Position numbers and translations under genes: made by a program. 15,888 nt of DNA from Promethearchaeota archaeon (lineage in GTDB: Archaea; Asgardarchaeota; Lokiarchaeia; Sigyniarchaeales; SOKP01), in contig JBHLNT010000093.1 of assembly GCA_048941265.1 (NCBI GenBank), positions 1-15,888 of the forward strand, written 5' to 3'. Shown here piece after piece: positions 1 to 15,591 of this stretch. Under the pieces are notes generated by a model. That model worked only from the letters and a program-made list of their open reading frames with translations, was not told the DNA's origin and did no database searches. How positions within the stretch are numbered: the first letter of the stretch is position 1; every line of letters begins with the position of its first letter.

Positions 1-921
1 CAAGAAATTGACAAATTAATAAATGAAAAGGATGAATCATGGAATAAACAAAAAAATTATCAAAAAATTATTACTGACTTAAAATCGGATCTTTCGATGG
101 AAAACTCTAAAAAGAATAATTATGAATCAAAAAAAATAATTTGTGCTGATCAAATAGAAACCTTATATGAAAGATCTAAAGATTATGGGACATTACCCCC
201 TATTACTGAAGATTTATCGGAAGAAGGATTACAATCTGATATTGCTCTTGCCAATAATAAGAAGAGAGCCTTAGAACCTGTGAACTTAAAAGCAATTGAA
301 CAATATGATACGGTAAAAGAGAGGTTTGATGAAATAGATATGCGTAGACAGACAATCCAACGCGAGAGAAAATCAATTTTAGATGCAATAGATAAGATAG
401 AACTAGAAAAGACAAGGACCTTCATGACTGCGTACCATGAGATTAACAGAGTTTTTAGTGCGGTGTTCCAGAAACTCTCTCCAGGGGGGTCAGCTAAAAT
501 GATTCTTGATAGACCTGATAAGCCGTTCGAAGGGGGTGTAAGTATCGAAGCACGTCCACGCGGTAAAAAGATCTCCTCGCTTGAGATTCTTAGTGGAGGT
601 GAAAAAACTCTAGTTGCGTTGTCATTTATTTTTGCCGTTCAAGAATTTTACCCAGCACCTTTTTATATAATGGATGAGATTGATGCAGCGCTCGATGGGC
701 CGAATGTTCATCGTGTGAGTACAGTTATCCAAGATTTCTCACATCAAGCACAATTTCTTGTAATAAGTCATAGAGAAGAGAATATTGTGAATGCTGACCG
801 CATTTATGGAGTTTCTATGCAGCAATCAGGCATTACAGATATTTTTAGTGTAGATCTAGAAGAAGAAGCAAAAAGACTTTTAGAATTAGAAGACATTCCA
901 CCCCAAGTGGAAGATAATTAA
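1..921 (+). CDS. smc: Chromosome segregation protein SMC, C-terminal part (5'-truncated by the window edge)
   Basis: Frame +1 is open from base 1 (QEIDKLINEKDESW...), so the ATG at 97 is internal. The protein has a coiled coil followed by the SMC head motifs: VNLKAIEQY, ARPRGKK, ABC signature LSGGEK, Walker B/D-loop YIMDEIDAALD and H-loop VISHR. It lies directly upstream of scpA and scpB. Confidence 0.97.
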   Translation, partial: QEIDKLINEKDESWNKQKNYQKIITDLKSDLSMENSKKNNYESKKIICADQIETLYERSKDYGTLPPITEDLSEEGLQSDIALANNKKRALEPVNLKAIEQYDTVKERFDEIDMRRQTIQRERKSILDAIDKIELEKTRTFMTAYHEINRVFSAVFQKLSPGGSAKMILDRPDKPFEGGVSIEARPRGKKISSLEILSGGEKTLVALSFIFAVQEFYPAPFYIMDEIDAALDGPNVHRVSTVIQDFSHQAQFLVISHREENIVNADRIYGVSMQQSGITDIFSVDLEEEAKRLLELEDIPPQVEDN

Positions 922-937
922 ATAAATTTCGAATAAT

Positions 938-943
938 GGTGAG
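938..943 (+). promoter_or_regulatory. Putative Shine-Dalgarno GGTGAG upstream of an ATT codon (949) in the scpA frame
   Basis: The GGTGA core typical of archaeal ribosome-binding sites ends 5 nt before ATT at 949, near the start of the open frame that begins after TGA 940-942. Confidence 0.5.
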
Positions 944-948
944 ATAGT

Positions 949-1947
949 ATTTCTGATAAAGAAGAACCAAATCAAGAAACAGATTTTAACAAATGGACAG
1001 TCAAAGATTTAAGAGAATTTTGTAATAAGAATAATATTAAAATTCCATCAAAAGCTAAAAAGAAAGATATAGTTGAGCTATTAAAAAGCGTAGTATCTAG
1101 TTCAGACTTCATAGATAGAACCAAAGAAGAAGAATTAGAAGAAGAATTAATTGCGGGTTTTGAGGAAGAGGAAGAGGAATCACCTCTTATGCATAGGGAA
1201 AAATCTGAAATAAAATTTTGGCAAAAACCGAAATATCGAGTATTATTAGATCTTGACCTCGCGAAAGATTCACAAGTTGCATTTTATGATTTATCAGCAT
1301 TAGTAGATAGGTTTTTTGATCATATGCTTCAAGAAGAGCTTATAAATTACAAAATCTCTGGAATAGCACTTAGGACAGCTGCAAATTTGCACCATTTCAA
1401 AATTTCTAGCATAATTCGTGAAGAAGAACAAATACAAAAGATGGAAGAACTCGAAAAATTAAGACAACGTCATTCAAGAGCAATTCCTAGAACTCTCCCT
1501 CAACCAATCAGTCCTAAAATGCAAATAGCAACAAAGGATGAATTATTTGAAGCTATGAGAGCTGCGATCATAGAAACGATGCAAAAAAAAGAAAAATTGA
1601 GAAGGAGAAGATTACGACAAGAAGAAGAAAAACATAAACGCCTACAAAGATTATCTCAAGCGAAATTGCCTAAAGAATTATTAAAACATATAAGTGGGAA
1701 GGAACAAACTGTTGAAGAATTACATGATAGTTGGTTTAATCGAATAAAGGCTACGATTAATATAAATAATAAAGATTCTAGTTTTTTTGATCTTTTAAAT
1801 ATTATAAAAGATGAGGAAGAAAGTTCTATTGGAAGAAAATTTGCGTTAGTTCGAATGTTTTTAGCTTTAATGTTCTTAAGCACAGGAAATAGATTAACGC
1901 TAGTCCAAGATGATGAATTTAAAGATATTTTAATAAATTTGAGATGA
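949..1947 (+). CDS. scpA: Kleisin ScpA with an N-terminal HeH/SAP-like extension (start uncertain; ORF track start is 1189)
   Basis: The N-terminal kleisin region (YDLSALVDRFFDHM...INYKISGIALRTAANLHHFK), middle motif (IATKDELFEAMRAAI) and C-terminal winged helix (LVRMFLALMFL...LTLVQDDEFKDILI) match archaeal ScpA, and the gene lies between smc and scpB. The frame is stop-free from 943 with protein-like content, but has no ATG/GTG/TTG before 1189. Confidence 0.88.
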   Translation: MSDKEEPNQETDFNKWTVKDLREFCNKNNIKIPSKAKKKDIVELLKSVVSSSDFIDRTKEEELEEELIAGFEEEEEESPLMHREKSEIKFWQKPKYRVLLDLDLAKDSQVAFYDLSALVDRFFDHMLQEELINYKISGIALRTAANLHHFKISSIIREEEQIQKMEELEKLRQRHSRAIPRTLPQPISPKMQIATKDELFEAMRAAIIETMQKKEKLRRRRLRQEEEKHKRLQRLSQAKLPKELLKHISGKEQTVEELHDSWFNRIKATININNKDSSFFDLLNIIKDEEESSIGRKFALVRMFLALMFLSTGNRLTLVQDDEFKDILINLR

Positions 1948-1971
1948 AAAATAATTAATATTAAAGTTTAT

Positions 1972-1975
1972 GGAG
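1972..1975 (+). promoter_or_regulatory. Putative Shine-Dalgarno GGAG for scpB
   Basis: GGAG lies 7 nt upstream of ATG 1983 in an otherwise AT-rich 35-nt spacer. Confidence 0.5.
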
Positions 1976-1982
1976 ATAAAAT

Positions 1983-2741
1983 ATGGATAATTCTAATGAG
2001 GAAATTAACGATCATTCTGAAAAAGAAGATAATGGAATAGTAGATGATAATAATTTTAATGAAGAACAAAAAGATGATTCTGAAGTAAATATTGAAAATA
2101 CAACTGATATGCCAGATAATATAGAAAACAATGCGATTGCTATTCCAGAAGGTGATGAAACAGATGAGGAACTAATAATAAGACAAATGCGAGATTATCA
2201 TAAAAATTTAATTGAAGCCTCTCTTTATGTTGCCGGAAGTTCATTGAGCATAGAAGAATTAAATACAAAATTGGAAATCTCTAAGAAAGAAGTTGAAGAA
2301 TTAATTAATGAACTTGCCTTCGATTATTTAGAACGCTCAACAGCTCTTGTAATTAATAGAGTTGGAGATGAGAGCTATCAGATGAGTCTTAAGACAGAAT
2401 TTATCGAAAAAGTCTCAAAATTTGCGAAAGGAGGGGCAATTGCTGAAAGATATTTAAGAACATTGACGGTTATCGCATTAAAACAGCCAATTCTTAAATC
2501 TTTAGTTATAAAATTAAGAGGCGCTGGAGCTTATGAGCATGTTAAATATCTTCTTGACAATGAATTAATTTCTGCCGTTAAAAAAGGAAGATCTCAAGAA
2601 TTAACGACTACTGATAAATATGCAGAAATGTTTGGCTTACCAAAAAATAAAGAAGAAATGAAAAGACTTATGGTTTCCCAATTAGGGCTTGATAATATAT
2701 CTGATGATGATAATAAAGAAAATAATGAAAACAGCGAATAA
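1983..2741 (+). CDS. scpB: SMC-Scp complex subunit ScpB (kite) with acidic N- and C-terminal tails
   Basis: Typical ScpB motifs are present: IEASLYVAG, YQM, LRTLTVIALKQPI...IKLRG...HVKYLL and GRS...TTDKYAEMFGL. It is the third gene of the smc-scpA-scpB cluster. Confidence 0.95.
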   Translation: MDNSNEEINDHSEKEDNGIVDDNNFNEEQKDDSEVNIENTTDMPDNIENNAIAIPEGDETDEELIIRQMRDYHKNLIEASLYVAGSSLSIEELNTKLEISKKEVEELINELAFDYLERSTALVINRVGDESYQMSLKTEFIEKVSKFAKGGAIAERYLRTLTVIALKQPILKSLVIKLRGAGAYEHVKYLLDNELISAVKKGRSQELTTTDKYAEMFGLPKNKEEMKRLMVSQLGLDNISDDDNKENNENSE

Positions 2742-5845: not shown

Positions 5846-8224
5846 TTAATAACAAGTTCTGGCAATAATTTCATCTTGGGCTGTTTTAGAGAGTTCAGTA
5901 AAGAGAACAGTATATCCTGCAATTCTTACAACTAGGCCTCGATATGCATCTGGATTTTTCTGAGCTTCGTATAATGTATCTTTACCAATTACATTAAATT
6001 GTATATGAAATCCCCCATCTGCTTGAAAAAAGGTTCGAATTAGAGAAGGAAAAATTTCTAATTTTAATGTATTTGGATGAAATGCCAAAATTAGTGAATC
6101 TCCATTGGTAATTAATCCATGATCGAGTTTTTTAACTGAATTAAGAATTGCAGTTGGACCATTTTTATCCATACCATTGGTAGGACCAACTCCGTTAGAT
6201 AATTGGACTTTAGATTTTCTTCCATCAGCTGATGCACCAGTAAAAATACCGAATGCTAAATGAAATGCTGTTGATAAGATTCCTGGATTAAATTTCCCGC
6301 CTCTATAATTTTCATGTTTTAAGATTTCATCGCAATAAAAGTTTACAACATCAACAGCAATTTGATCAACATAATCATTATCATTTCCATATTTTGGAAC
6401 TTTATTTATGAAAATTTCTCTCCATTCGCTACCTTTTCTCCCTCGATACGAGCCCCTATAATTTTTCATAAGCATTTCGACCAATTCTTCTAATGAAAGG
6501 AGCTTATCTTCAAATACAATCTTTTTTATTACAGCGAGACTATCTGCCACTGTTGCTAAACCTATTAATTGAGCGCCTGTAAAATTATAAAGAGCTCCTC
6601 CCTGAGTTACATCAAGTCCCCTCTCTAAACAATTTTCTGTAGTTGCAGACAAGAATGGTTGAGGATTTAGTTCAGCAATAGCGGCATCCAGAACATCCAT
6701 AGTCAAAACCATATTTTCAATAAAATATCTTGTTTGATCTTTAAATGCATCCCAAAGATCTTCATATGAAGTAATTTTTTTATTGCTTTTAACTCCATAA
6801 TCTACCCTTGTTACCATATCAATTCCGTTCGTTAATGCTAACTCTAAACATTTTACAATATTGATTTGATTTGCATTAGTTGACCCAAAAGATTTATATG
6901 GATGTTGGGGTTCAACACACCCAATTGGTGCATATTCTCGAGCATCTTCAAGGGTAAATCCAATTTTTACCATACTTTTAACCATTATATCATCGTTGAA
7001 TAAAGCAACACTGGCTCCTGATTTTATGGATTCACCAACTTTATATAAAAAATCATCGGGAGTCATACTATGAATTCGAATAGAAAAAGTCGGTTGGACT
7101 GTCTTCAAGTGAGTATAAGCATCTAACATAATATATGATAATTCATTTGTTGCATCTTTTCCATTGCGATCAACACCACCTATTGTTAAATTTTCCGTAA
7201 TAGGAGGTCCCTCAGCAGCAACAATTCCTTTACTAAGAACATAATTCCATAATGTCGTGAGTTTAATATAAAAACATTCAACAAGGAATTGAGCTTCCTC
7301 TTCTGAAATTTTTCCCTCATTTCTATCTTTTAAGAAATATGGATATAAAACTTGATCTAAACGTCCAACGCTTACAGCAAAACCGCCATCTTCTAAACCA
7401 CATATTAATTGATTAAAATAAACCAGCTGTAATGCTTCTTTAAATGATTTTGGTGGGTTTTCAGAAATGTTGCCGCAAATTTCAGCAATTTCATGAAGCT
7501 CTAATTGACGTTTAGAATTTACTTCGATTTCTGCTTTATCCTTAGCTAATTGTGCAAATCTTTGGATAAATTTCTTTACCGCATTACAAATAATAATAAC
7601 AGATTGTAAAAATGTACTTTTTGAAATGTCATCAGAAAATTCAATAATCTTCCTTTCTGCTTTTTTTATTAACCCATTTATTCCATATTTTAAAAGAGGT
7701 TCATGACCCGGAAGAAAATGGCCAATACCATTAGTTAATTCTGTATCAACAAGAAATACTACTTTTTCCATAAGATCCCTTAAATCCGATCCTAATTTTT
7801 TCTGAAATCTCTCTTGAACCGTATCTTCTTCAAGTTTCCAGTAGGGAATAAGGTCTTCTGCAATATATGTTTTATCCTCGTTAGACAAAAAAAGTCGTTG
7901 AACTAAGCGACTATCATAAGTGTTATAATCTTGTTCGATTGTATCAATACGAACTTCAGGATATAAAGGCGTCCCGACCAACTTCGTGGTACGATTGCCA
8001 ATAATAAATTCGTCATCCCAAATTTTAATTGTCATATTTGTTAGCAAATATTCCATCGCTTTAGCAAATCGGATAATTGGAGGGTCTCCTTTTGATGCTT
8101 TATAGGATTCCATAAATAACTTTGCTCTTTCGATGCATATTTCATGTGATTGATTGACCACTCTTTCTTTCATCTTTGAAGTGCGTTCTTTATAGTTTGA
8201 ATATGAGATGCGTTCTAATTGCAT
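5846..8224 (-). CDS. Glycyl radical enzyme (PFL2/PflD/dehydratase-like superfamily), substrate unknown
   Basis: Cys loop IGCVEP (GCVEP at 6908-6922), Gly loop VRIAGY (RIAGY at 5912-5926), plus ICIERA, GRLDQVLYPY, NLTIGG, PKYGND, ASADGR, GPTAILNS and HIQFNV. It has a single-Cys loop, so it is not a canonical CC-type PFL. Confidence 0.93.
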   Translation of the reverse strand: MQLERISYSNYKERTSKMKERVVNQSHEICIERAKLFMESYKASKGDPPIIRFAKAMEYLLTNMTIKIWDDEFIIGNRTTKLVGTPLYPEVRIDTIEQDYNTYDSRLVQRLFLSNEDKTYIAEDLIPYWKLEEDTVQERFQKKLGSDLRDLMEKVVFLVDTELTNGIGHFLPGHEPLLKYGINGLIKKAERKIIEFSDDISKSTFLQSVIIICNAVKKFIQRFAQLAKDKAEIEVNSKRQLELHEIAEICGNISENPPKSFKEALQLVYFNQLICGLEDGGFAVSVGRLDQVLYPYFLKDRNEGKISEEEAQFLVECFYIKLTTLWNYVLSKGIVAAEGPPITENLTIGGVDRNGKDATNELSYIMLDAYTHLKTVQPTFSIRIHSMTPDDFLYKVGESIKSGASVALFNDDIMVKSMVKIGFTLEDAREYAPIGCVEPQHPYKSFGSTNANQINIVKCLELALTNGIDMVTRVDYGVKSNKKITSYEDLWDAFKDQTRYFIENMVLTMDVLDAAIAELNPQPFLSATTENCLERGLDVTQGGALYNFTGAQLIGLATVADSLAVIKKIVFEDKLLSLEELVEMLMKNYRGSYRGRKGSEWREIFINKVPKYGNDNDYVDQIAVDVVNFYCDEILKHENYRGGKFNPGILSTAFHLAFGIFTGASADGRKSKVQLSNGVGPTNGMDKNGPTAILNSVKKLDHGLITNGDSLILAFHPNTLKLEIFPSLIRTFFQADGGFHIQFNVIGKDTLYEAQKNPDAYRGLVVRIAGYTVLFTELSKTAQDEIIARTCY

Positions 8225-8395: not shown

Positions 8396-9238
8396 TTAAT
8401 TCAATACCAAAACTTCTTTAATAGTACCTCTTTTAGTCGAATCGCTATTTATTGCTCTCTTAGCATTTAACAAAACAACTTTATAATCCTTATATAAATC
8501 TAAGATAAAATTTGAGTATGAATTACTCAACAAAATCTTACATCCATGCTCATCAAGAATTTTAAACGTATTATACAGCTTTATTTGGTCATCCTTCCCA
8601 AAATTATCTTTAGTATAGCTGGTAAAATTAGCAGAGTCAGAGATAGGAACATAAGGAGGATCAAAATAAATAAAATCATCTTTCTCCGCAAAATTTAAGC
8701 ATAATTCAAATGTACCTTCTAATATATTAACATTTTTCAAAACACTGCTGATTGCTTCGAGATTTTCTTCATCACAAAATCTAGGATTTTTATATCTGCC
8801 AAATGGCACATTAAATTGCCCTTTACTATTTACTCTATATAAACCATTATAGCAACATCTATTTAAATAAATAGTTCTAGAAGCTTTTTCAACATCAGAT
8901 AATTTGTTATATGATTTGGGAGTTCTATCTAATGCTCGAATTTGATAATAGTAATTTTTTTCATTTTTATGATTTTTTAGTAATTGTATCAATTCTTTTA
9001 CATTATTTTTTATAACTTTATAACAATTTACTAATTCACTATTAATATCAATTAAAATTGCTTTTTCAGGCAATATATAGAAAAATAAAGCTCCTCCTCC
9101 TACAAAAGGTTCGATATACATGTTATAATTCTTAGGTAAATACTTTATCATCTGTGAAATTAATTGCCTCTTCCCTCCAGCCCATTTTACAAAAGGATGG
9201 GGTCTGAGATGCTGGGAATTGAAGCTCTTTTCAGCCAT
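8396..9238 (-). CDS. dam: DNA adenine methyltransferase, Dam/DpnM (D12) family, probably GATC-specific
   Basis: Motifs: FVKWAGGKRQL, YIEPFVGGGA (SAM binding), DIN, YNGLYRVNSKGQFNVPFGRY (target recognition), YFDPPY (catalytic) and LSNS. Confidence 0.93.
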   Translation of the reverse strand: MAEKSFNSQHLRPHPFVKWAGGKRQLISQMIKYLPKNYNMYIEPFVGGGALFFYILPEKAILIDINSELVNCYKVIKNNVKELIQLLKNHKNEKNYYYQIRALDRTPKSYNKLSDVEKASRTIYLNRCCYNGLYRVNSKGQFNVPFGRYKNPRFCDEENLEAISSVLKNVNILEGTFELCLNFAEKDDFIYFDPPYVPISDSANFTSYTKDNFGKDDQIKLYNTFKILDEHGCKILLSNSYSNFILDLYKDYKVVLLNAKRAINSDSTKRGTIKEVLVLN

Positions 9239-9508: not shown

Positions 9509-10471
9509 ATGGAAGATATCACGAGTAAAAGCTCTAGCGACCAAAAATTTAGAGAATTATTTAATAAACAATTGATTAAAGACGCTACGGAAGAAGAAAT
9601 TAAAATTGTTTTATCAGGACAATATGGCAAAGCTCTAGAATTATTGAGAGATGCTGAGGCAACAGGCTTATTTCCTGCTCTTGTAGGTCCACCAGGAGTT
9701 GGAAAGACAATTCTTTGCCGTTATTTTGCCAGTTTAAGAGCAAAAGAGAATAAAAATGCGAGTTTTTATTGGTTAACTATGGATGAATCAATTAGACCGG
9801 CAAATTTCATGGGTTCGTTTGACCCTGCTCTTACATTAAAGTATGGGTTCATATTGGAAGCATTTAGCCCTGGTCCATTGCTGAGAGCAATGTTAGAGGG
9901 TGGTACATTTTTAGCTAACGAGATTAATAGGGCAACAGAATATTCTCAAAACACATTATTAGAACCTTTAGAGGAGGCATCCATTGGTATACCCCATCTT
10001 GGAAGGATAAAAGCAGATCAAGAATTCTTTTTTATTTGTGCAATGAATCCGGAGGAATTATCGGGTACACACCGCTTATCTGAAGCATTAAAAGATAGAA
10101 TCAAGGTATGGATTAAATTAACATATCCTGAAAAATCAACTGAGTTGGATATAATCCGTATTAATCTACCGGAGCATTTCATGGTTGAAGAATCTGAACT
10201 TGAACTAATATATTCAATTATTAATGAAACAAGAAAAAATAAAATTGATATAGAAGTACCAGCATCAATTAGAGCTGGTATAGCAATTGCTAAACTTTTA
10301 GGTAGGAAAAGGTTTCTTGAAGAAAAGGGAGATATTAAGGACAAAAAAACCGTATATGAGTACTTATCTGATATATCTAAACATGTTTTATTAGGTAGTA
10401 TAAAACCTAAACCTGGTGTCAAAGTCGAGCACATTATCGACAATATTATCAATAAAACTTTAGGAGGATAG
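9509..10471 (+). CDS. MoxR-family AAA+ ATPase
   Basis: Walker A GPPGVGKT, the F.PGPL motif, Walker B variant FLANEINRA, QNTLLEPLEE, sensor I AMNP, LSEALKDR (arginine finger) and lid motif ASIR. It is followed directly by a VWA gene. Confidence 0.92.
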   Translation: MEDITSKSSSDQKFRELFNKQLIKDATEEEIKIVLSGQYGKALELLRDAEATGLFPALVGPPGVGKTILCRYFASLRAKENKNASFYWLTMDESIRPANFMGSFDPALTLKYGFILEAFSPGPLLRAMLEGGTFLANEINRATEYSQNTLLEPLEEASIGIPHLGRIKADQEFFFICAMNPEELSGTHRLSEALKDRIKVWIKLTYPEKSTELDIIRINLPEHFMVEESELELIYSIINETRKNKIDIEVPASIRAGIAIAKLLGRKRFLEEKGDIKDKKTVYEYLSDISKHVLLGSIKPKPGVKVEHIIDNIINKTLGG

Positions 10472-10495
10472 TCTTTTCGGAGGAAATATCTTATC

Positions 10496-12991
10496 ATGGG
10501 GGTATTCCCAGAAAATCCGTGTGAATATAGTGTAGAATTTATAAGAAGGATGAGAAATCATCCAGATATTGTTCAAATTCCCTCATCGCGGCAAGTTATG
10601 TCAATTCCCCGCTTAATAGTAGCTCGATACTATCGGAAGGGGGCAATAACTCCAAATGATTTCATAGAAGTTAGCACTGTAACATCTTATCCTGGAAATC
10701 AAGACATTGCCAAAAAAATAGCCTTTGAAATATTATTTCCTAATTACAAAAAAGATTTAGTTAAATCATTCTTTCAAGAAGATTTTAATACCGATAATAT
10801 TTTAGATGATGACTTTTTAACCCCCGAAGAAAAATCTTCCTTAGACGAATTTCAAGAATTAATAGATGAAATTGAAATGTCTAAATCCATAGATACGGAT
10901 TTTCTTCAGAAAATTGAGCAATTTATGGAAGAATTGAATCAAAAAAGGGAAGAAGAACCATTTAATTCAGCTTTAAATTTTTTTTCTGATGATGCGGAAT
11001 TATATAAAGAAAAAATATCATCTTTAGAGGAGTTACTTAACGAGGCTAAAAAGAGATTAGAACAAAAAATTAATTCTTTAGATCCTGATGACTTAAAAGC
11101 TGCTGAATCATTGAATTTAAACGATTTAATTCAAGAACAATCGAAGCGGGCATGGGAACAAATTACTAGTAAGGCGCTTAATAATCAAGACATTACACAG
11201 GATTTAAAAGAATTAATGAACTCAAATAATTTTGAAGATTTAATCCAAACATTAAAATATTTAAATGACACCAATGCAATTTCTAAAGATCAAATGCAGC
11301 AAATGAAAGATGAGCTACAAAATCAAATAAGTAACCTTGATCAATTATTTCAAGCTGCAAAAAATTTAGGAGAAACACCAAAATTCGATCCAGAAAAAGT
11401 ATTAAAACAATCCCTAGAACAATCTTCATTTGATCATAATTTTAATCTTTCAAATTCATTAGATCAATATTTTGGCACCAATTTAAGAGCTCAACTACTC
11501 GATAAATATGATCAACTCTCTCAAAATTCTCCTATGAATCTTTCACTCGAAAATTTGACTAAAAACGCGCTTGCTAATAAATCATGGAATAACTTAATAA
11601 ATAAGGCACTTGAAAACGCGATTAAAGACGCGATGAGCAAAAAAAGAAAATTTGAAGAATTTAAATCTTTAGCTCATCAATTACAGCAATTGGCAAATTC
11701 TTGTGCCAATATGCATTGCAGCCAAAAATTAGAACAAAATCTTCCCGATATAATTAAAAAATCCTTAGAATCATGTGAAAATGCAAATGAATTGAAAAAT
11801 ACTGTGGAATTTTTAAGAAACATTGGTTTAAATCCAGATAAAGAAGATATAAATCAAGTAGGAAAAAACATAGGAATGAGTGATGAAGAAATCTTTGAAT
11901 TAATAGAACCAGATTATCAATTATTAAAAAAATTGATAGATAAAAATCTCGGTGATTTTGAACGACTTAATAATTTAATGAATCAAATAAAGGACCAAAT
12001 CAATAAAGATCGAATGAAAGAATTGATCTCTAGCGCTTTGGCTTCTGAAAATCGGGACGCTTTAGGAGCTCTTGGTCATTTTAATTTGGAAGATGCCCTA
12101 AAAAGTGCTCAATTCATCGGAGGAGAAGAGGGCCAAAATAAATTAATACAATGCCTTGGGGCCGGTAGTGGTGAAAATTTACTGAAACAGTGGTTTACGC
12201 ACAGAAATAATTTATCTCCTACTGCAAAGGAAAAAGTGAAAGAACTTGCTAAAAAAATGCTTATTGACTTAGGGATTTATTATTCGCGAGCCCGGCTTGG
12301 AACAACAATTTCAGGACCAATCCCCATAAATGTTGTGCGACCATTTGCAATAGGGGATGATTTTGAAAATGTTGACCTCGAAGAGACAATAAATAACATT
12401 TTAGAAAAAGGAAAGAAAGTAGATCATATAAATTATGATGATTTTTTTGTATTTGAAACAGCTAAGGGACAGAGAAGTGCATGCTTTGAGCTCGACATTT
12501 CAGGAAGCATGACGGGAGATAAATTAGCATCAATGGCAATTTCTACAACAATGTTAGCGTATGGTTTACAGAAAGATGAACTTGGAATAACCTTCTTTGA
12601 ATCGGATACTCATGTATTAAAAGAATTAGGTGATGATAAAGATTTAGAAGAATTAGCTGATGAACTCTTGTCTGTGACTGCCAGAGGAGGTACGAGAGTT
12701 CAAAAAGCGCTCGAATGGGCAAGACGTCAGTTTAAAGAAAAATCAAGTGCTCGTGAAAAATTAAATGTACTTTTTACTGATGCTGAAATTTACGATCTCA
12801 AACAAGCAATGGAAGAATTAAGAATTTTTCGTTCCATGGGAGTTGATTTTGTTTTAGTTGTGCCGGAAACATCTTTTAATATTGAAGATGCAAAAAAAAT
12901 TGTAAAAATTGTCGGAGGACAGCTTCTCACTTTAAAAAACTGGGAAGAATTCCCTGATTTAATTTCTGAAATAATTAATTCAAAGTTTTAA
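10496..12991 (+). CDS. Large VWA-domain protein (MoxR partner): N-terminal AAA-lid-like domain, long helical middle, C-terminal VWA
   Basis: MIDAS motif DISGS (12494-12508), later GGT and LFTDAE, and a pre-VWA motif VRPFAIGDDFENVDLEET typical of MoxR-associated VWA proteins. It is 24 nt downstream of the ATPase, with GGAGG at 10479-10483. Confidence 0.9.
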   Translation: MGVFPENPCEYSVEFIRRMRNHPDIVQIPSSRQVMSIPRLIVARYYRKGAITPNDFIEVSTVTSYPGNQDIAKKIAFEILFPNYKKDLVKSFFQEDFNTDNILDDDFLTPEEKSSLDEFQELIDEIEMSKSIDTDFLQKIEQFMEELNQKREEEPFNSALNFFSDDAELYKEKISSLEELLNEAKKRLEQKINSLDPDDLKAAESLNLNDLIQEQSKRAWEQITSKALNNQDITQDLKELMNSNNFEDLIQTLKYLNDTNAISKDQMQQMKDELQNQISNLDQLFQAAKNLGETPKFDPEKVLKQSLEQSSFDHNFNLSNSLDQYFGTNLRAQLLDKYDQLSQNSPMNLSLENLTKNALANKSWNNLINKALENAIKDAMSKKRKFEEFKSLAHQLQQLANSCANMHCSQKLEQNLPDIIKKSLESCENANELKNTVEFLRNIGLNPDKEDINQVGKNIGMSDEEIFELIEPDYQLLKKLIDKNLGDFERLNNLMNQIKDQINKDRMKELISSALASENRDALGALGHFNLEDALKSAQFIGGEEGQNKLIQCLGAGSGENLLKQWFTHRNNLSPTAKEKVKELAKKMLIDLGIYYSRARLGTTISGPIPINVVRPFAIGDDFENVDLEETINNILEKGKKVDHINYDDFFVFETAKGQRSACFELDISGSMTGDKLASMAISTTMLAYGLQKDELGITFFESDTHVLKELGDDKDLEELADELLSVTARGGTRVQKALEWARRQFKEKSSAREKLNVLFTDAEIYDLKQAMEELRIFRSMGVDFVLVVPETSFNIEDAKKIVKIVGGQLLTLKNWEEFPDLISEIINSKF

Positions 12992-13227: not shown

Positions 13228-15591
13228 ATGATTAAAATTTCTCTATCAGATGTACTTATAGAAAAATTTGGCGAAAAACTCTATTTAAAATCAAAAAGTT
13301 TTCCAAATAATAAAATAAATATTATTTGTCTAAAGGAAAATCCAATTAAGATCAATTCCATTATCTTAGACAATGATCGCGAATTCCATCTGATAATAGA
13401 TGAGAAAAAGGGTGAAATCTTCCACGATTGCCCTAATTTTTTAATTCATTCTGAAAGAGAAAAAAAAATTTGTATTCATTTCGTTAAGCTCTTACTCTTA
13501 ATTAAAAATCATATAGCGTTAGAAATAGCAAAGGATTTTGAAAGTTATTCACTAACTTCGGAAGATTTCGGGTCTAAAAAGAAAAGTAAAAACTTTTTGC
13601 TGTTAGCAAATAATTGTTTTGATACAAATAACTGCGTTGAGGGTTTAAGTTATCTTAATAAAGCTATAATAAATCAATATGAATGTGAGAACATTATTGA
13701 AAATTATTTAAATAGAGCAATAGAAAATAATCTCTATCTCGAATTTTTTGAATTTTTAAGGTCTGGGTTTGAAAATGATTTAAATGATTATATTTTACAA
13801 TTTGATCATTATATCGAAAAAGGTTTTAAGAATTTTCTTAATTCAATTAACGATTATTCCTTTTTTAACATACTAAGTGTAATCGAGGCTTTAGATTTTA
13901 TTTCTGAATATTATGACTTCACGTTTATTAATAAATTCTTTAAAAAATTTAAAAAATTAATTAATAGTTTAAACTTTAATGAAAAATATTTTTCGATTTA
14001 TTTTATTAAAAAGAATATGGAAAAATTCTCTGAGTTAAATCCATTATTTAAAGAGCTAATCCTACCAGAATCTCTCGAATCCGCTAAAGCTGAATTTTTA
14101 CGATATTTTCTTGATGAAATTGAAAATTTAGCGGTAATTGATAAATTAAAAATAATGAAGAAGCAATTTGAAACCATAAATATACCTAAAGAAAAATTCT
14201 ATAATGAATATAAAAAATACAAGGAAGAAATTAAAGAATTAGAGAAAAAGGTATATTTAAAAAAATTCTCCTTCCTGAAACTTTTAATGGAAAAATATAA
14301 TATTATAACCTCCCGAGGAGAATTTAGGAAAAAGAGAAATACTTATATTGTAAGACATGATGAAGAGAATCTTAATAATCCTGTTTATTCATATATTATT
14401 AAATCAATTGGATTTTATGGAATAAATGAATCTACTATAAAATCTACAGATATTGGAATTAATTACTTTATTATTAAACATTTATTTTCCGATGATCTTA
14501 GTTCACATCCAGATATATTTTACTACAAAAAACAATTTTGGGGCGAACTTGAAGATTATGAGATTAATCCGATAGATGGATTCTCTCTTTTGAGAGAAAA
14601 TATTAATTATAACTATGATATTGATCAACACTACTCAAATATTAATGATGTTATTATAATAGAATGGGATTTAGCAAACAAACCAAGACAAGGGAGTATA
14701 GTGAATGCTTATGGTTCTCAAATTTCAATCCCAGACCAACATAATCCATTATTTCACGATTTAAAACCTTTTGATTTATGTTACTGCCAGAAATCTCCAG
14801 TGAAAATCGAAGGGAACATAATAAAAACTGTCAATGTGATTACTAAATGTTCTTTTAAAGATGCCATAAATAGTGTTTCAAAAGGCATGAGTTTTGTTGA
14901 GGGATACTATCCTTTATCCCTTGTAAAGGCTGTATTAAATAAGGATATAAGCCCATTTAAAGCAAATGAAATCGCGGTTAATAATCCAAATAAGACTTTT
15001 ATTCCAAACTATAAACAATTTATTAAAAATTTTAGAGAATTTCTCTTTAATTTTATAAAAAAAGAAAAAGATTATATTTTTGAAGAATTAAAATCTGATC
15101 CTAAAAATAAAATAAATCAAATTTTAATGTTACTTAATTTACAAAATGAAACTCTGGGACTAGAACTATCATACTCAGAAATATTGGAAAAATTATTGGT
15201 TCAAAAAGTAAATCTAAATGTATTCAAATCAAAATTTTTAACTGAATTACATAAATATATAAAAGAAATCCTAAAAGAAAAAAAAATTGGCAGTACCAAA
15301 ATATTTGATTTGAAGCAACTCCGAAATACTCAATTTTTTAAATATTCTAATGAAATTATTAAAATTCGAACTGATGAATTTGAATCCACTGAAATTCTAC
15401 GTTCAAGAAATAATAAAAATGTAAGATATGATTTTTCAGAAATAATTAAAACATATTATGGTGGAAAGTTTTCAAATATCTTAAATATAGAAAATCCATT
15501 AAATGTAAAACAAGAAAAATTCACTAAATTTGCTGAATTGGCTTCACAATTAAAATTAAAATTGAATATTAAAGACTTAGAAATGTCTTAA
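13228..15591 (+). CDS. Hypothetical 787-aa protein with an N-terminal SWIM-like zinc finger
   Basis: Long ORF with HDCPNF...KKICIHFVKLL (HxC-x13-CxH, 13423-13479), preceded by beta-strand-like segments and followed by a hydrophobic helix as in SWIM domains. The remainder is not recognised. Confidence 0.7.
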   Translation: MIKISLSDVLIEKFGEKLYLKSKSFPNNKINIICLKENPIKINSIILDNDREFHLIIDEKKGEIFHDCPNFLIHSEREKKICIHFVKLLLLIKNHIALEIAKDFESYSLTSEDFGSKKKSKNFLLLANNCFDTNNCVEGLSYLNKAIINQYECENIIENYLNRAIENNLYLEFFEFLRSGFENDLNDYILQFDHYIEKGFKNFLNSINDYSFFNILSVIEALDFISEYYDFTFINKFFKKFKKLINSLNFNEKYFSIYFIKKNMEKFSELNPLFKELILPESLESAKAEFLRYFLDEIENLAVIDKLKIMKKQFETINIPKEKFYNEYKKYKEEIKELEKKVYLKKFSFLKLLMEKYNIITSRGEFRKKRNTYIVRHDEENLNNPVYSYIIKSIGFYGINESTIKSTDIGINYFIIKHLFSDDLSSHPDIFYYKKQFWGELEDYEINPIDGFSLLRENINYNYDIDQHYSNINDVIIIEWDLANKPRQGSIVNAYGSQISIPDQHNPLFHDLKPFDLCYCQKSPVKIEGNIIKTVNVITKCSFKDAINSVSKGMSFVEGYYPLSLVKAVLNKDISPFKANEIAVNNPNKTFIPNYKQFIKNFREFLFNFIKKEKDYIFEELKSDPKNKINQILMLLNLQNETLGLELSYSEILEKLLVQKVNLNVFKSKFLTELHKYIKEILKEKKIGSTKIFDLKQLRNTQFFKYSNEIIKIRTDEFESTEILRSRNNKNVRYDFSEIIKTYYGGKFSNILNIENPLNVKQEKFTKFAELASQLKLKLNIKDLEMS

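Follow-up and report, generated by a model that had tools for sequence, protein, structure and literature searches.

A lid-like N-terminal domain without a nucleotide-binding core on the VWA partner of a MoxR-type ATPase in an Asgard archaeon

In the stretch of Asgard DNA analysed here (the window, 15,888 nucleotides of contig JBHLNT010000093.1), the VWA/MIDAS protein encoded directly downstream of a MoxR-type AAA+ ATPase begins with a domain that, as its sequence supports, is a stand-alone homologue of the clade-7 AAA+ lid, in which the SxR arginine is conserved and a P-loop core is absent. The interpretation that we consider probable is that this VWA protein corresponds to a subunit of the ChlD/BchD type reduced to a lid, an acidic linker and a VWA domain, and that the orphan lid, devoid of the nucleotide-binding core, would dock on the oligomer of the ATPase. 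The features on which the argument is built are collected in Table 1.

Table 1. Coordinates of the features of the locus within the window.
Feature	Position (nt)	Strand	Basis
MoxR-type (AAA_5/AAA_3) AAA+ ATPase, 320 aa	9509..10471	+	Pfam
Lid of the ATPase itself (small helical subdomain), residues 226-290	10184..10378	+	hhalign, invariant columns
GGAGG ribosome-binding site of the VWA gene	10479..10483	+	read from sequence; 12 nt 5′ of ATG
VWA/MIDAS protein, 831 aa	10496-12991	+	ORF
Orphan lid-like N-domain, VWA protein residues 1-83	10496..10744	+	AF2 model, hhalign, conservation
Disordered linker, VWA protein residues 84-105	10745..10810	+	pLDDT, composition, conservation
All-alpha middle region, VWA protein residues ~110-600	10823..12295	+	whole-protein model, block conservation
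VWA/MIDAS unit with NorD/midasin-type N-terminal extension, residues ~584-831	12245..12988	+	Pfam, VIA-align
Third gene, 787-aa protein without known family	13228..15591	+	no Pfam or PADLOC match

The ATPase gene ends with the stop codon TAG at 10469-10471. It and the VWA gene are adjacent and co-oriented, as in other MoxR/VWA pairs, and the pairing is strict: in 45 of 46 loci the VWA gene has an ATPase reading frame directly upstream, as it does in a Bathyarchaeota locus, where the two overlap by 11 nt. The description of the locus as a two-gene machine, given in the first-pass annotation, has to be widened, since 35 of 45 related loci have, beside the ATPase/VWA pair, a homologue of the third gene, making this usually a three-gene module; examples of loci where the pair is present and no third gene was found are L034, L036, L042 and the Bathyarchaeota locus. 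The third-gene product has no match in Pfam or PADLOC; a SWIM-like HxC...CxH motif can be made out by eye near residues 66-84, and SWIM-named structures appear among its Atlas neighbours at TM <0.5, which is a lead only. A general linkage with SMC-ScpAB was considered and set aside, as it shows up in only two of 20 upstream regions, which come from close relatives, and in one Bathyarchaeota locus. A role in defence, as a "ternary conflict system", was likewise rejected, firstly, because PADLOC matches neither the VWA protein nor the third-gene product and gives for the ATPase only marginal matches (E 1e-3 to 3e-3), and secondly, because the proteins are unusually conserved and do not look diversifying.

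The ATPase belongs to the MoxR type by its Pfam matches (AAA_5, 7.2e-17; AAA_3, 1.9e-12) and has a Walker A motif that reads GPPGVGKT, a Walker B that reads N137-E138, where N137 falls on the Walker B Asp when aligned with a midasin AAA domain, and an arginine finger, R197, which aligns with R170 of RavA, the residue to which this role is assigned in PMC6987120. In its own lid, R242 and the motif P251-A-S253-I-R255 are invariant in 27 sequences; by motif and position, R255 (codon 10271-10273) is a putative sensor 2, and no alignment with R251 of RavA or with another solved sensor 2 was obtained for it. A phmmer search of the PDB with the lid (123 aa) gave no match at E<=10. The whole ATPase profile finds its best PDB sequence matches in midasin AAA domains (E 1.2e-57, the sum over four stretches), a score that marks no special relationship, because the MoxR chain 2r44 reaches 82 bits in a single stretch.

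That the VWA protein should begin with a stand-alone AAA+ lid had been proposed from an alignment made by eye, between the peptides SVEFIRR...NDFIEV, which are residues 12-59 of the VWA protein (nt 10529-10672), and IYSIINETRKNKIDIEVPASIRAGIAIAKLL, which are residues 233-263 of the ATPase (nt 10205-10297). Both peptides lie where they were said to lie, and hhalign reproduces the alignment at 92-94% probability (E 1e-7 to 5e-7). With profiles of 147 N-domain sequences and 42 ATPase sequences as input, positions 4-60 of the N-domain fall on 226-290 of the ATPase (94.1-94.4%, E 1.2e-7), in a register that sets S30 and R32 on S253 and R255, and R20 on R242; with other alignments of the two the values are 92.4% and E 5e-7. 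When the columns were shuffled, none of 200 trials came up to the 49.9 of the real alignment (mean 13.0, sd 2.6, maximum 22.1). An earlier run, in which the gap columns were kept, gave one outlier in 150, at 135.6; the block shuffles of that same run never reached the real score (0 of 150, maximum 36.8), and the reversed profile scored 9.7.

The homology extends to other lids. Against a second MoxR lid, from a paralogous family that the same genome encodes, the N-domain aligns at 82.3% (E 1e-5) with the SxR in the same register, and against the lid of Asgard proteins in which an AAA+ module, its lid, an acidic linker and a VWA domain are fused in one chain, at 95.4% (E 1.7e-8, 74 columns, 27% identity). 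The fusion set consists of three proteins of 644-650 aa with an intact P-loop, reading GAPGTSKT in two and PPGCSKS in the third. At the other end of the molecule, residues 578-831 of the VWA protein match the VWA of these fusions at 99.5% (E 4.5e-23). Both ends of the VWA protein are therefore accounted for in the same order, and the VWA protein is colinear with these ChlD-like fusions minus their nucleotide-binding core. The analogy with chelatase I/D subunits, which had been offered as a loose one, thus comes out stronger than first claimed.

Within the family, the domain is the most conserved part of the VWA protein, with a per-block identity of 0.72-0.86. Conservation of the SxR motif in homologues, which the first-pass annotation had named as a test of its proposal, holds throughout: among 147 sequences, R32 (codon 10589-10591) is kept in 146, with one gap, R20 (10553-10555) and D55 in 144 each, and S30 in 134, with T in eight. 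A regular-expression search finds no Walker A motif anywhere in the 831-aa protein, in keeping with the absence of a P-loop domain noted at the outset. In a clade-7 protein the lid ordinarily comes after the P-loop alpha-beta-alpha core of its own chain, which this one does not; what it shares with bona fide AAA+ lids is sequence homology, to three lid families in one register. In a phmmer search of 1.84 billion representatives, the domain lies within the first 48 residues in 104 of 104 matches. Since there is no Walker A, since the domain starts at about residue 8, and since it occupies the extreme N-terminus in every one of these matches, it is an orphan lid and not an AAA+ module.

The predicted structure agrees with this reading. 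The AF2 model of residues 1-100 (pLDDT 87.5, pTM 0.75) is a compact bundle of four helices, as expected of a lid, at 8-20, 31-48, 53-63 and 66-80, which return in the model of the whole protein; a second delimitation of the helices gives 8-21, 33-48, 53-62 and 66-80. In a VIA-align search against 48,161 chains, 15 of the 50 matches listed are clade-7 AAA+ proteins, and in 12 of these 15 the match falls on a lid-sized stretch, including six MCM chains and three dynein chains. The scores are Z 6.7 (rmsd 3.0) with BchI 268-350, 5.9 with CbbQ2 197-272, 5.2 with NorQ 195-269, 4.9-5.7 with MCM lids and up to 7.9 with dynein; a second search adds only the Doc toxin, MCM lids and bromodomains (Z 4-6.7). 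Structure alone is not decisive, because all Z values are below 8 and unrelated helical folds score alike (Doc toxin 6.2-6.7, cyclins and TFIIB 5-6, bromodomains 4-5).

It might accordingly be supposed that the resemblance is convergent, a generic four-helix bundle that happens to contain an SxR. Such a supposition would draw on these equal scores of unrelated folds and on the silence of other searches: the N-terminal 100 aa match no Pfam family at E<=10, lid families included; the N-domain HMM finds no AAA+ chain among PDB sequences at E<=10, its sole match being apolipophorin-III at 0.032; single-sequence profile tests against RavA, YehL, ViaA, YehP and YehM of E. coli all stay below 1%; and Foldseek returns nothing for the model at E<=0.001. 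We nevertheless hold it to be highly improbable, as three independent lid profiles agree in one register at probabilities of 82-95%, no column shuffle attains the real score, and the identity to the fusion lid is accompanied by colinearity with the linker and VWA of the fusions.

Behind the N-domain comes the linker, with pLDDT <50 and the lowest conservation of the VWA protein (0.44), in an acidic stretch that counts 34 D/E against 14 K/R over residues 81-200. The middle region that follows had been pictured as a helical arm of some 550 residues joining the lid to the VWA. Helical it is, but the picture needs correcting: after about 22 disordered acidic residues come about 33 short helices, modelled with confidence (pLDDT mostly 85-93), and conserved (0.61-0.79 per block) as well as the end domains. 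From the model, the region looks like a folded all-alpha domain, and nothing points to an extended arm. It contains no Pfam family at or above cut-off; Foldseek gave long alignments with Ro60, which are weak (TM 0.25-0.35), and the best score in the ESM Atlas, 0.77, is uninformative.

The VWA unit is recognized by Pfam (VWA_2, 6.8e-10) and its MIDAS is intact: D667-x-S669-x-S671 (nt 12494-12508), T733 and D762, of which, in sets of 32 and 75 sequences, T733 is conserved to at least 90% and the other four do not vary. By VIA-align the unit, N-terminal extension included, has the fold of the NorD VWA (Z 18.1, 231 aligned, model 584-831) and of the MIDAS domains of MDN1 (Z 15.1, 202 aligned, 576-831) and Rea1 (Z 14.4), so the likeness to midasin drawn in the first-pass annotation is well founded for the fold. 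A special midasin relationship at the level of sequence was rejected, as the midasin MIDAS is not among the sequences that a profile built on the VWA protein finds. VWA_CoxE falls short of its cut-off (25.8 against 26.4 bits) and is matched in four of 16 shorter members of the family (387-476 aa); tblastn with a short-form member found nothing in plasmids, and a homologue search restricted to proteins of 689-2000 aa returned the same family. Some homologues are annotated with PF27098, which in one partial protein of 726 aa is the sole family.

How such a protein could work may be considered from what is known of clade 7, where the ATP sites are completed by the lid of the neighbouring subunit with a sensor 2 acting in trans, a premise of the first-pass annotation that is stated in PMC6987120, and of ChlI, where density seen at the semi-rings' open ends is consistent with the N-terminal AAA+-like domain of ChlD (bioRxiv 10.64898/2026.03.06.710059). 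In the reading that we prefer, the steps would be: (i) the alpha-beta-alpha core would have been lost from an ancestor with the ChlD/BchD-like plan of AAA+ module, acidic linker and VWA; (ii) in Asgard genomes, a conserved all-alpha region of ~400-490 aa would have been added between linker and VWA; (iii) the orphan lid would anchor one partner molecule to the ATPase oligomer, taking the place of a neighbouring protomer's lid on the large subdomain, most plausibly at an open end or at the seam of a spiral; (iv) so placed, the invariant R32, and R20 with it, would point in trans at the bound nucleotide; (v) the NorD/midasin-like VWA unit would engage the face or the pore of the ring; (vi) and finally, a client, possibly the third-gene product, would be held by one of its acidic residues in the intact MIDAS.

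Other placements of the lid have precedents. NorD's N-terminal domain binds the small subdomain of the ATPase at the periphery of the ring while a finger of its VWA enters the pore (PMC13036017), and CobT's N-terminal domain likewise sits on the small subdomain with its VWA finger in the pore (10.64898/2026.10.09.757910, 10.64898/2026.07.21.739949). These known partners thus tether peripherally to the lid, and with unrelated N-terminal domains, and in that mode no contact with the nucleotide would be needed, which counts against the reading preferred here. By analogy, the N-domain, although derived from a lid, could be only a peripheral tether on the small subdomain of the ATPase, R20 and R32 serving the stability of the fold or protein contacts; in the same sense, the lid of the ATPase is itself complete and has both arginines, so that a second one is not obviously needed. 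A tether of this kind seems to us rather unlikely, because the two arginines, kept in 144 and 146 of 147 sequences in the register of three lid families, go beyond what a generic tether needs, and because CobT_N is reported in the work on CobST to have a different, M48C-like fold, a beta-sheet plus helices.

It could also be that the N-domain is a relic of a ChlD-like ancestor that has left the ATPase altogether and now binds a client, for which the third gene present in most of the loci offers a candidate, or folds back, as an autoinhibitory module, on the middle domain or on the acidic linker of its own chain, the linker that directly follows being able to pair with the conserved arginines. 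We think this improbable: a relic would hardly be the best conserved part of its protein, and the N-domain occurs together with the ATPase even at loci in which no third gene was found. Docking on the ATPase oligomer remains for us the better account of the orphan lid.

If that docking is accepted, a stronger version can be entertained, namely, that two genes together make up one AAA+ active site: the orphan lid would bring R32, as a trans sensor 2, into the nucleotide site of the terminal (seam) protomer of the MoxR spiral, and a single partner per ring, setting its own number at 1:6, would gate hydrolysis there. This is possible but doubtful; if true, the minimal pseudo-subunit would be cut down to that piece of a clade-7 protomer which alone has a trans action. 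A corollary, bolder and less likely, is that the Asgard module of ring, acidic linker and MIDAS could be closely related to the form from which eukaryotic midasin arose.

Machines of the MoxR-VWA type, which serve in maturation and remodelling, are widespread. The placement of the adaptor on the ring has only recently been seen, for NorQD and CobST, and the VWA protein suggests a variation on this theme, and on that of chelatase I/D, in which the partner plugs in through an orphan lid. A partner with the lid of its motor, both arginines included, and without the core would couple to it in a different and very economical way, and would form a natural link between adaptors of the free VWA kind and AAA+-VWA subunits of the ChlD type. 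Among the best 120 database matches of each, from Lokiarchaeia-like genomes, identity is 83-96% for the ATPase and 67-94% for the VWA protein; this strong conservation points to a housekeeping role, which would lie in the closest prokaryotic relatives of eukaryotes.

Among known systems, in the YehL-YehM-YehP-YehQ cluster of E. coli a SWIM-type protein likewise keeps company with a MoxR ATPase and a VWA protein. Kinship with it was rejected, as the similarity is that of AAA and VWA domains in general, the N-domain stays below 1% against YehL, YehM and YehP, and the third-gene product has no match in YehQ. A separate YehP-like gene is present elsewhere in the same genome. Midasin/Rea1 has in common with the VWA protein a D/E-rich segment ahead of the MIDAS domain and a VWA extension that aligns in MDN1 and Rea1, but is a single polypeptide with six AAA modules; the passages of the Asgard literature available to us contain only a passing mention of midasin. 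Nor do the available passages of the literature on MoxR, VWA and AAA+ lids describe an orphan lid on a VWA partner. The closest in words are the CoxE-type vWA proteins, for which a "4-helical N-terminal domain" is reported on a MoxR-partnered vWA protein (Kaur et al. 2020, PMC7159879); the passages in question do not relate that domain to the AAA+ lid.

NorQ/NorD and CobS/CobT share with this locus the adjacent gene pair and an N-terminal domain that a flexible linker connects to the VWA; the VWA of NorD also has an N-terminal extension, and the lid of NorQ is among the matches to the N-domain fold. The N-terminal domains themselves differ, that of NorD being of ~240 residues (PMC13036017), and that of CobT being larger and of another fold, whereas that of the VWA protein is a copy of the lid of its motor. 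The nearest likeness is with Mg-chelatase ChlI/ChlD (BchI/BchD), where a separate clade-7 ATPase works with a subunit that combines sequence of the lid type with an acidic linker and a VWA/MIDAS at the C-terminus, and where the lid of BchI is one of the best fold matches of the N-domain. Unlike ChlD/BchD, the VWA protein has only the lid, without the alpha-beta-alpha core, and has some 490 all-alpha residues between linker and VWA; and unlike the setting of Mg-chelatase, the host is, to judge from the names that its homologues bear, a non-photosynthetic archaeon and no gene within the window matches a Pfam chelatase family (ChlH/CobN-like). It is the plan of the chelatase partner, from lid through acidic linker to VWA, that the two systems have in common.

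The ATPase and VWA genes are separated by a 24-nt spacer in which a GGAGG site can be read, and 45 of 46 loci have an ATPase ORF, shortened in three of them, as the immediate upstream neighbour of the VWA gene; the remaining locus is cut short where its contig stops. The pairing of the two genes is strict. The first-pass annotation had proposed a two-gene machine, and the pairing stands, but in 35 of 45 related loci the pair is joined by a homologue of a third gene, which as a rule follows the VWA gene and in three cases precedes the ATPase gene; the 787-aa product could be a client or a third subunit. Within the VWA protein, Pfam places VWA_2 at 666–763, with VWA_CoxE just below its cut-off (25.8 bits), and no Walker A motif occurs in the 831 residues, as expected from the earlier remark that a P-loop domain is missing. 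The peptides then aligned by eye are residues 12–59 of this protein and 233–263 of the ATPase, and positions 10520–10687, proposed as a lid, fall within its N-domain (residues ~8–80).

Coordinates of the genes and sites discussed (window, unless a related locus is named)
Feature	Location	Strand	Remarks
SMC (C-terminal part), ScpA-like ORF, ScpB	1-2741		upstream of the pair
Glycyl-radical enzyme, PFL2/glycerol-dehydratase subfamily	5846-8224	-	TIGR01774, 731 bits
D12-class (Dam-type) adenine methyltransferase	8396-9238	-	divergent, adjoins ATPase gene
ATPase	9509-10471	+	320 aa; Pfam AAA_5/AAA_3, MoxR-type AAA+
ATPase Walker B	9917-9922		N137-E138
VWA protein	10496-12991	+	831 aa; Pfam VWA families at C-terminus only
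Cys/His cluster of VWA protein	11702-11719		C403, H407, C408
Third gene	13228-15591	+	787 aa; no Pfam family matched
AAA+-lid-acidic linker-VWA fusion	L085 622-2559	-	644-650 aa, P-loop intact
AAA+-lid-acidic linker-VWA fusion	L086 614-2566	-	644-650 aa, P-loop intact
AAA+-lid-acidic linker-VWA fusion	L087 487-2421	+	644-650 aa, P-loop intact
SMC/ScpA-like/ScpB, Bathyarchaeota MAG	L088 38-2633		directly upstream of the pair
Second MoxR/VWA pair, same genome (G000:C113)	L002 464-2448		289 aa and 353 aa
YehP-like VWA_CoxE protein, same genome (G000:C53)	L050 646-2175		509 aa

The by-eye alignment of the N-domain with the ATPase lid was reproduced when profiles were compared: the N-domain (147 sequences) matched the cognate ATPases (42 sequences) with a probability of 94.1% (E 1.2e-7), residues 4–60 falling on ATPase 226–290, and hhalign with alignments built differently gave 92.4% (E 5e-7). 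R20 stands opposite R242, and S30/R32 opposite S253/R255; all 27 ATPase sequences aligned share R242, P251, S253 and R255, the last being, by its motif and position, the putative sensor 2. The real score of 49.9 was reached by none of 200 column shuffles (mean 13.0, sd 2.6, maximum 22.1); in an earlier run, in which gap columns were kept, one of 150 shuffles was an outlier, none of 150 block shuffles came up to the real score, and the reversed profile scored 9.7. The same register was found on the lid of the paralogous 289-aa MoxR of this genome (29 sequences; 82.3%, E 1e-5) and on the lids of three Asgard AAA+-lid-acidic linker-VWA fusions (95.4%, E 1.7e-8, 74 columns, 27% identity). The comparison with lid profiles suggested earlier was thus positive at the profile-profile level (82–95%, three lid families), whereas HMM-to-sequence searches gave nothing: zero Pfam families at E ≤ 10 on residues 1–100, and no AAA+ chain in the PDB matched by a 25-sequence N-domain profile.

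For the fold, AF2 on residues 1–100 (62-row alignment; pLDDT 87.5, pTM 0.75) predicts helices at 8–20, 31–48, 53–63 and 66–80. Foldseek returned no match to this model at E ≤ 0.001; VIA-align, run against 48,161 chains, has 15 clade-7 AAA+ proteins among the 50 rows listed. Twelve of these are matched over a stretch the size of a lid: BchI 268–350 (Z 6.7, rmsd 3.0, 68 aligned), CbbQ2 197–272 (Z 5.9), NorQ 195–269 (Z 5.2), MCM (six chains, Z 4.9–5.5) and dynein (three chains, Z up to 7.9). As every Z is below 8 and unrelated helical folds (Doc toxin, cyclins/TFIIB, HAD caps, bromodomains) score alike, the modelled fold appears consistent with a lid, and enriched for it, without being decisive alone; what carries the case for the lid is the profile comparisons together with colinearity. 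The latter comes from the fusions: their lid corresponds to the N-domain, and their VWA to the C-terminal residues 578–831 (profile, 99.5%), so the VWA protein reads as colinear with a ChlD-like subunit, the alpha-beta-alpha core excepted, which strengthens the loose analogy with chelatase I/D drawn earlier. Judged from sequence, then, the N-domain is a homologue of an AAA+ lid that has lost the core and kept the lid arginines. The fusions constitute a ChlD-like architecture in non-photosynthetic archaea, and the families they come from are ones in which the search for the N-domain came up empty, which we give as an observation only.

A phmmer search with residues 1–100 against 1.84 billion representatives gave 104 proteins; in every one the matching stretch falls in the N-terminal 48 residues, never behind a P-loop core. 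Long forms (~660–1000 aa) carry C-terminal VWA families in 34 of 37 scanned; the shorter sequences (372–503 aa), some perhaps partial, carry VWA_CoxE in 4 of 16. A long form named from Lokiarchaeum ossiferum is 30% identical. In Bathyarchaeota, a 433-aa short form consists of lid, Q/E-rich linker and VWA, its gene directly following that of the orthologous ATPase with an 11-nt overlap, and a Methanolliviera MAG is the source name of one short-form cluster member. The proposed survey of Asgard genomes, made on a 201-genome phylum sample (E ≤ 1e-5), found the N-domain in 82, mostly in two families (33/40 and 34/43 genomes), and did not find it in many others.

The whole-protein AF2 model (75 rows; pLDDT 85.3, pTM 0.48) keeps the four-helix N-domain and a VWA domain. 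Of the ~550-aa helical arm supposed to join them, the helices remain, some 33 short ones from 110 to 600 (pLDDT mostly 85–93), but they follow a disordered segment (84–105) that belongs to an acidic region (residues 81–200, with 34 D/E), and are as conserved as the ends (0.61–0.79 per 30-residue block, 33 sequences). The middle thus looks like a folded all-alpha domain rather than a flexible spacer; its long alignments are Ro60-like and weak. This region also has a conserved Cys/His cluster, in which close homologues share N401, S402 and N405 without exception; it may form a small metal site. The VWA unit is of NorD/midasin type: its best full-length alignment, N-terminal extension included, is the NorD VWA (Z 18.1, 231 residues, model 584–831), followed by the MIDAS domains of MDN1 and Rea1 (Z 15.1 and 14.4), which likewise align through the extension; alignments with generic VWAs start only at about residue 656. 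The MIDAS is intact, with D667, S669, S671 and D762 invariant and T733 nearly so.

In the ATPase, Walker A is intact and Walker B reads N137-E138 in 27/27 sequences, with Asn in place of the usual Walker B Asp; the Asp of a midasin AAA module aligns with N137, the paralogous MoxR has NE too, and this Asn may mean slow or partner-dependent hydrolysis. The RavA R-finger R170 aligns with R197. Against PDB sequences the family profile finds midasin best (E 1.2e-57 over four stretches), then MoxR 2r44 (4.3e-22), CbbQ, NorQ and CobS. Identity to the 120 best database matches is 83–96% for the ATPase and 67–94% for the VWA protein.

With regard to the surroundings, no PADLOC model matches the VWA or 787-aa proteins, and the ATPase has marginal matches only. 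The 787-aa protein shows by eye a SWIM-like HxC...CxH motif near residues 66–84, and SWIM-named clusters are among its Atlas structure neighbours (TM <0.5, poor model). SMC-ScpAB linkage occurs in 2 of 20 upstream regions from other genomes, both close relatives; in the Bathyarchaeota MAG 365 nt separate the end of scpB from the ATPase gene. The methyltransferase has a homologue in the same position in at least 8 of 45 related loci, whose flanks are short, and none of the ORFs of ≥80 aa in the window could be recognised as an activase for the glycyl-radical enzyme. The 353-aa VWA protein of the second pair lacks the lid-like N-domain.

MoxR-VWA pairs and ChlD-type AAA+-VWA subunits are already known, PF27098, a new Pfam family assigned to some of the homologues, may cover part of the VWA protein already, and CoxE-type vWA proteins have a described "4-helical N-terminal domain" (PMC7159879). 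In the passages and searches covered, no text was found that identifies the CoxE-type domain with an orphan AAA+ lid keeping its lid arginines, nor one that describes the Asgard lid-VWA family.

Clade-7 ATP sites form where the large subdomain of one protomer meets the lid of the next, and sensor 2 acts in trans (PMC6987120). The orphan lid would anchor a single VWA partner to each ATPase oligomer by taking up the position of a neighbour's lid, plausibly that at the seam, and R32 would face the nucleotide; the VWA unit would engage a client as well as the ring. On the main rival reading the orphan lid would be a purely peripheral lid-to-lid tether, and in NorQD and CobST the partner N-terminal domain does bind the small subdomain, the VWA finger entering the pore (PMC13036017; 10.64898/2026.10.09.757910; 10.64898/2026.07.21.739949). 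Placement at a neighbour-lid position, which we prefer, is to be read beside the ChlI semi-rings, whose open ends hold density consistent with the AAA+-like N-terminal domain of ChlD (10.64898/2026.03.06.710059); ChlD, however, has an AAA+-like core, and the VWA protein does not.
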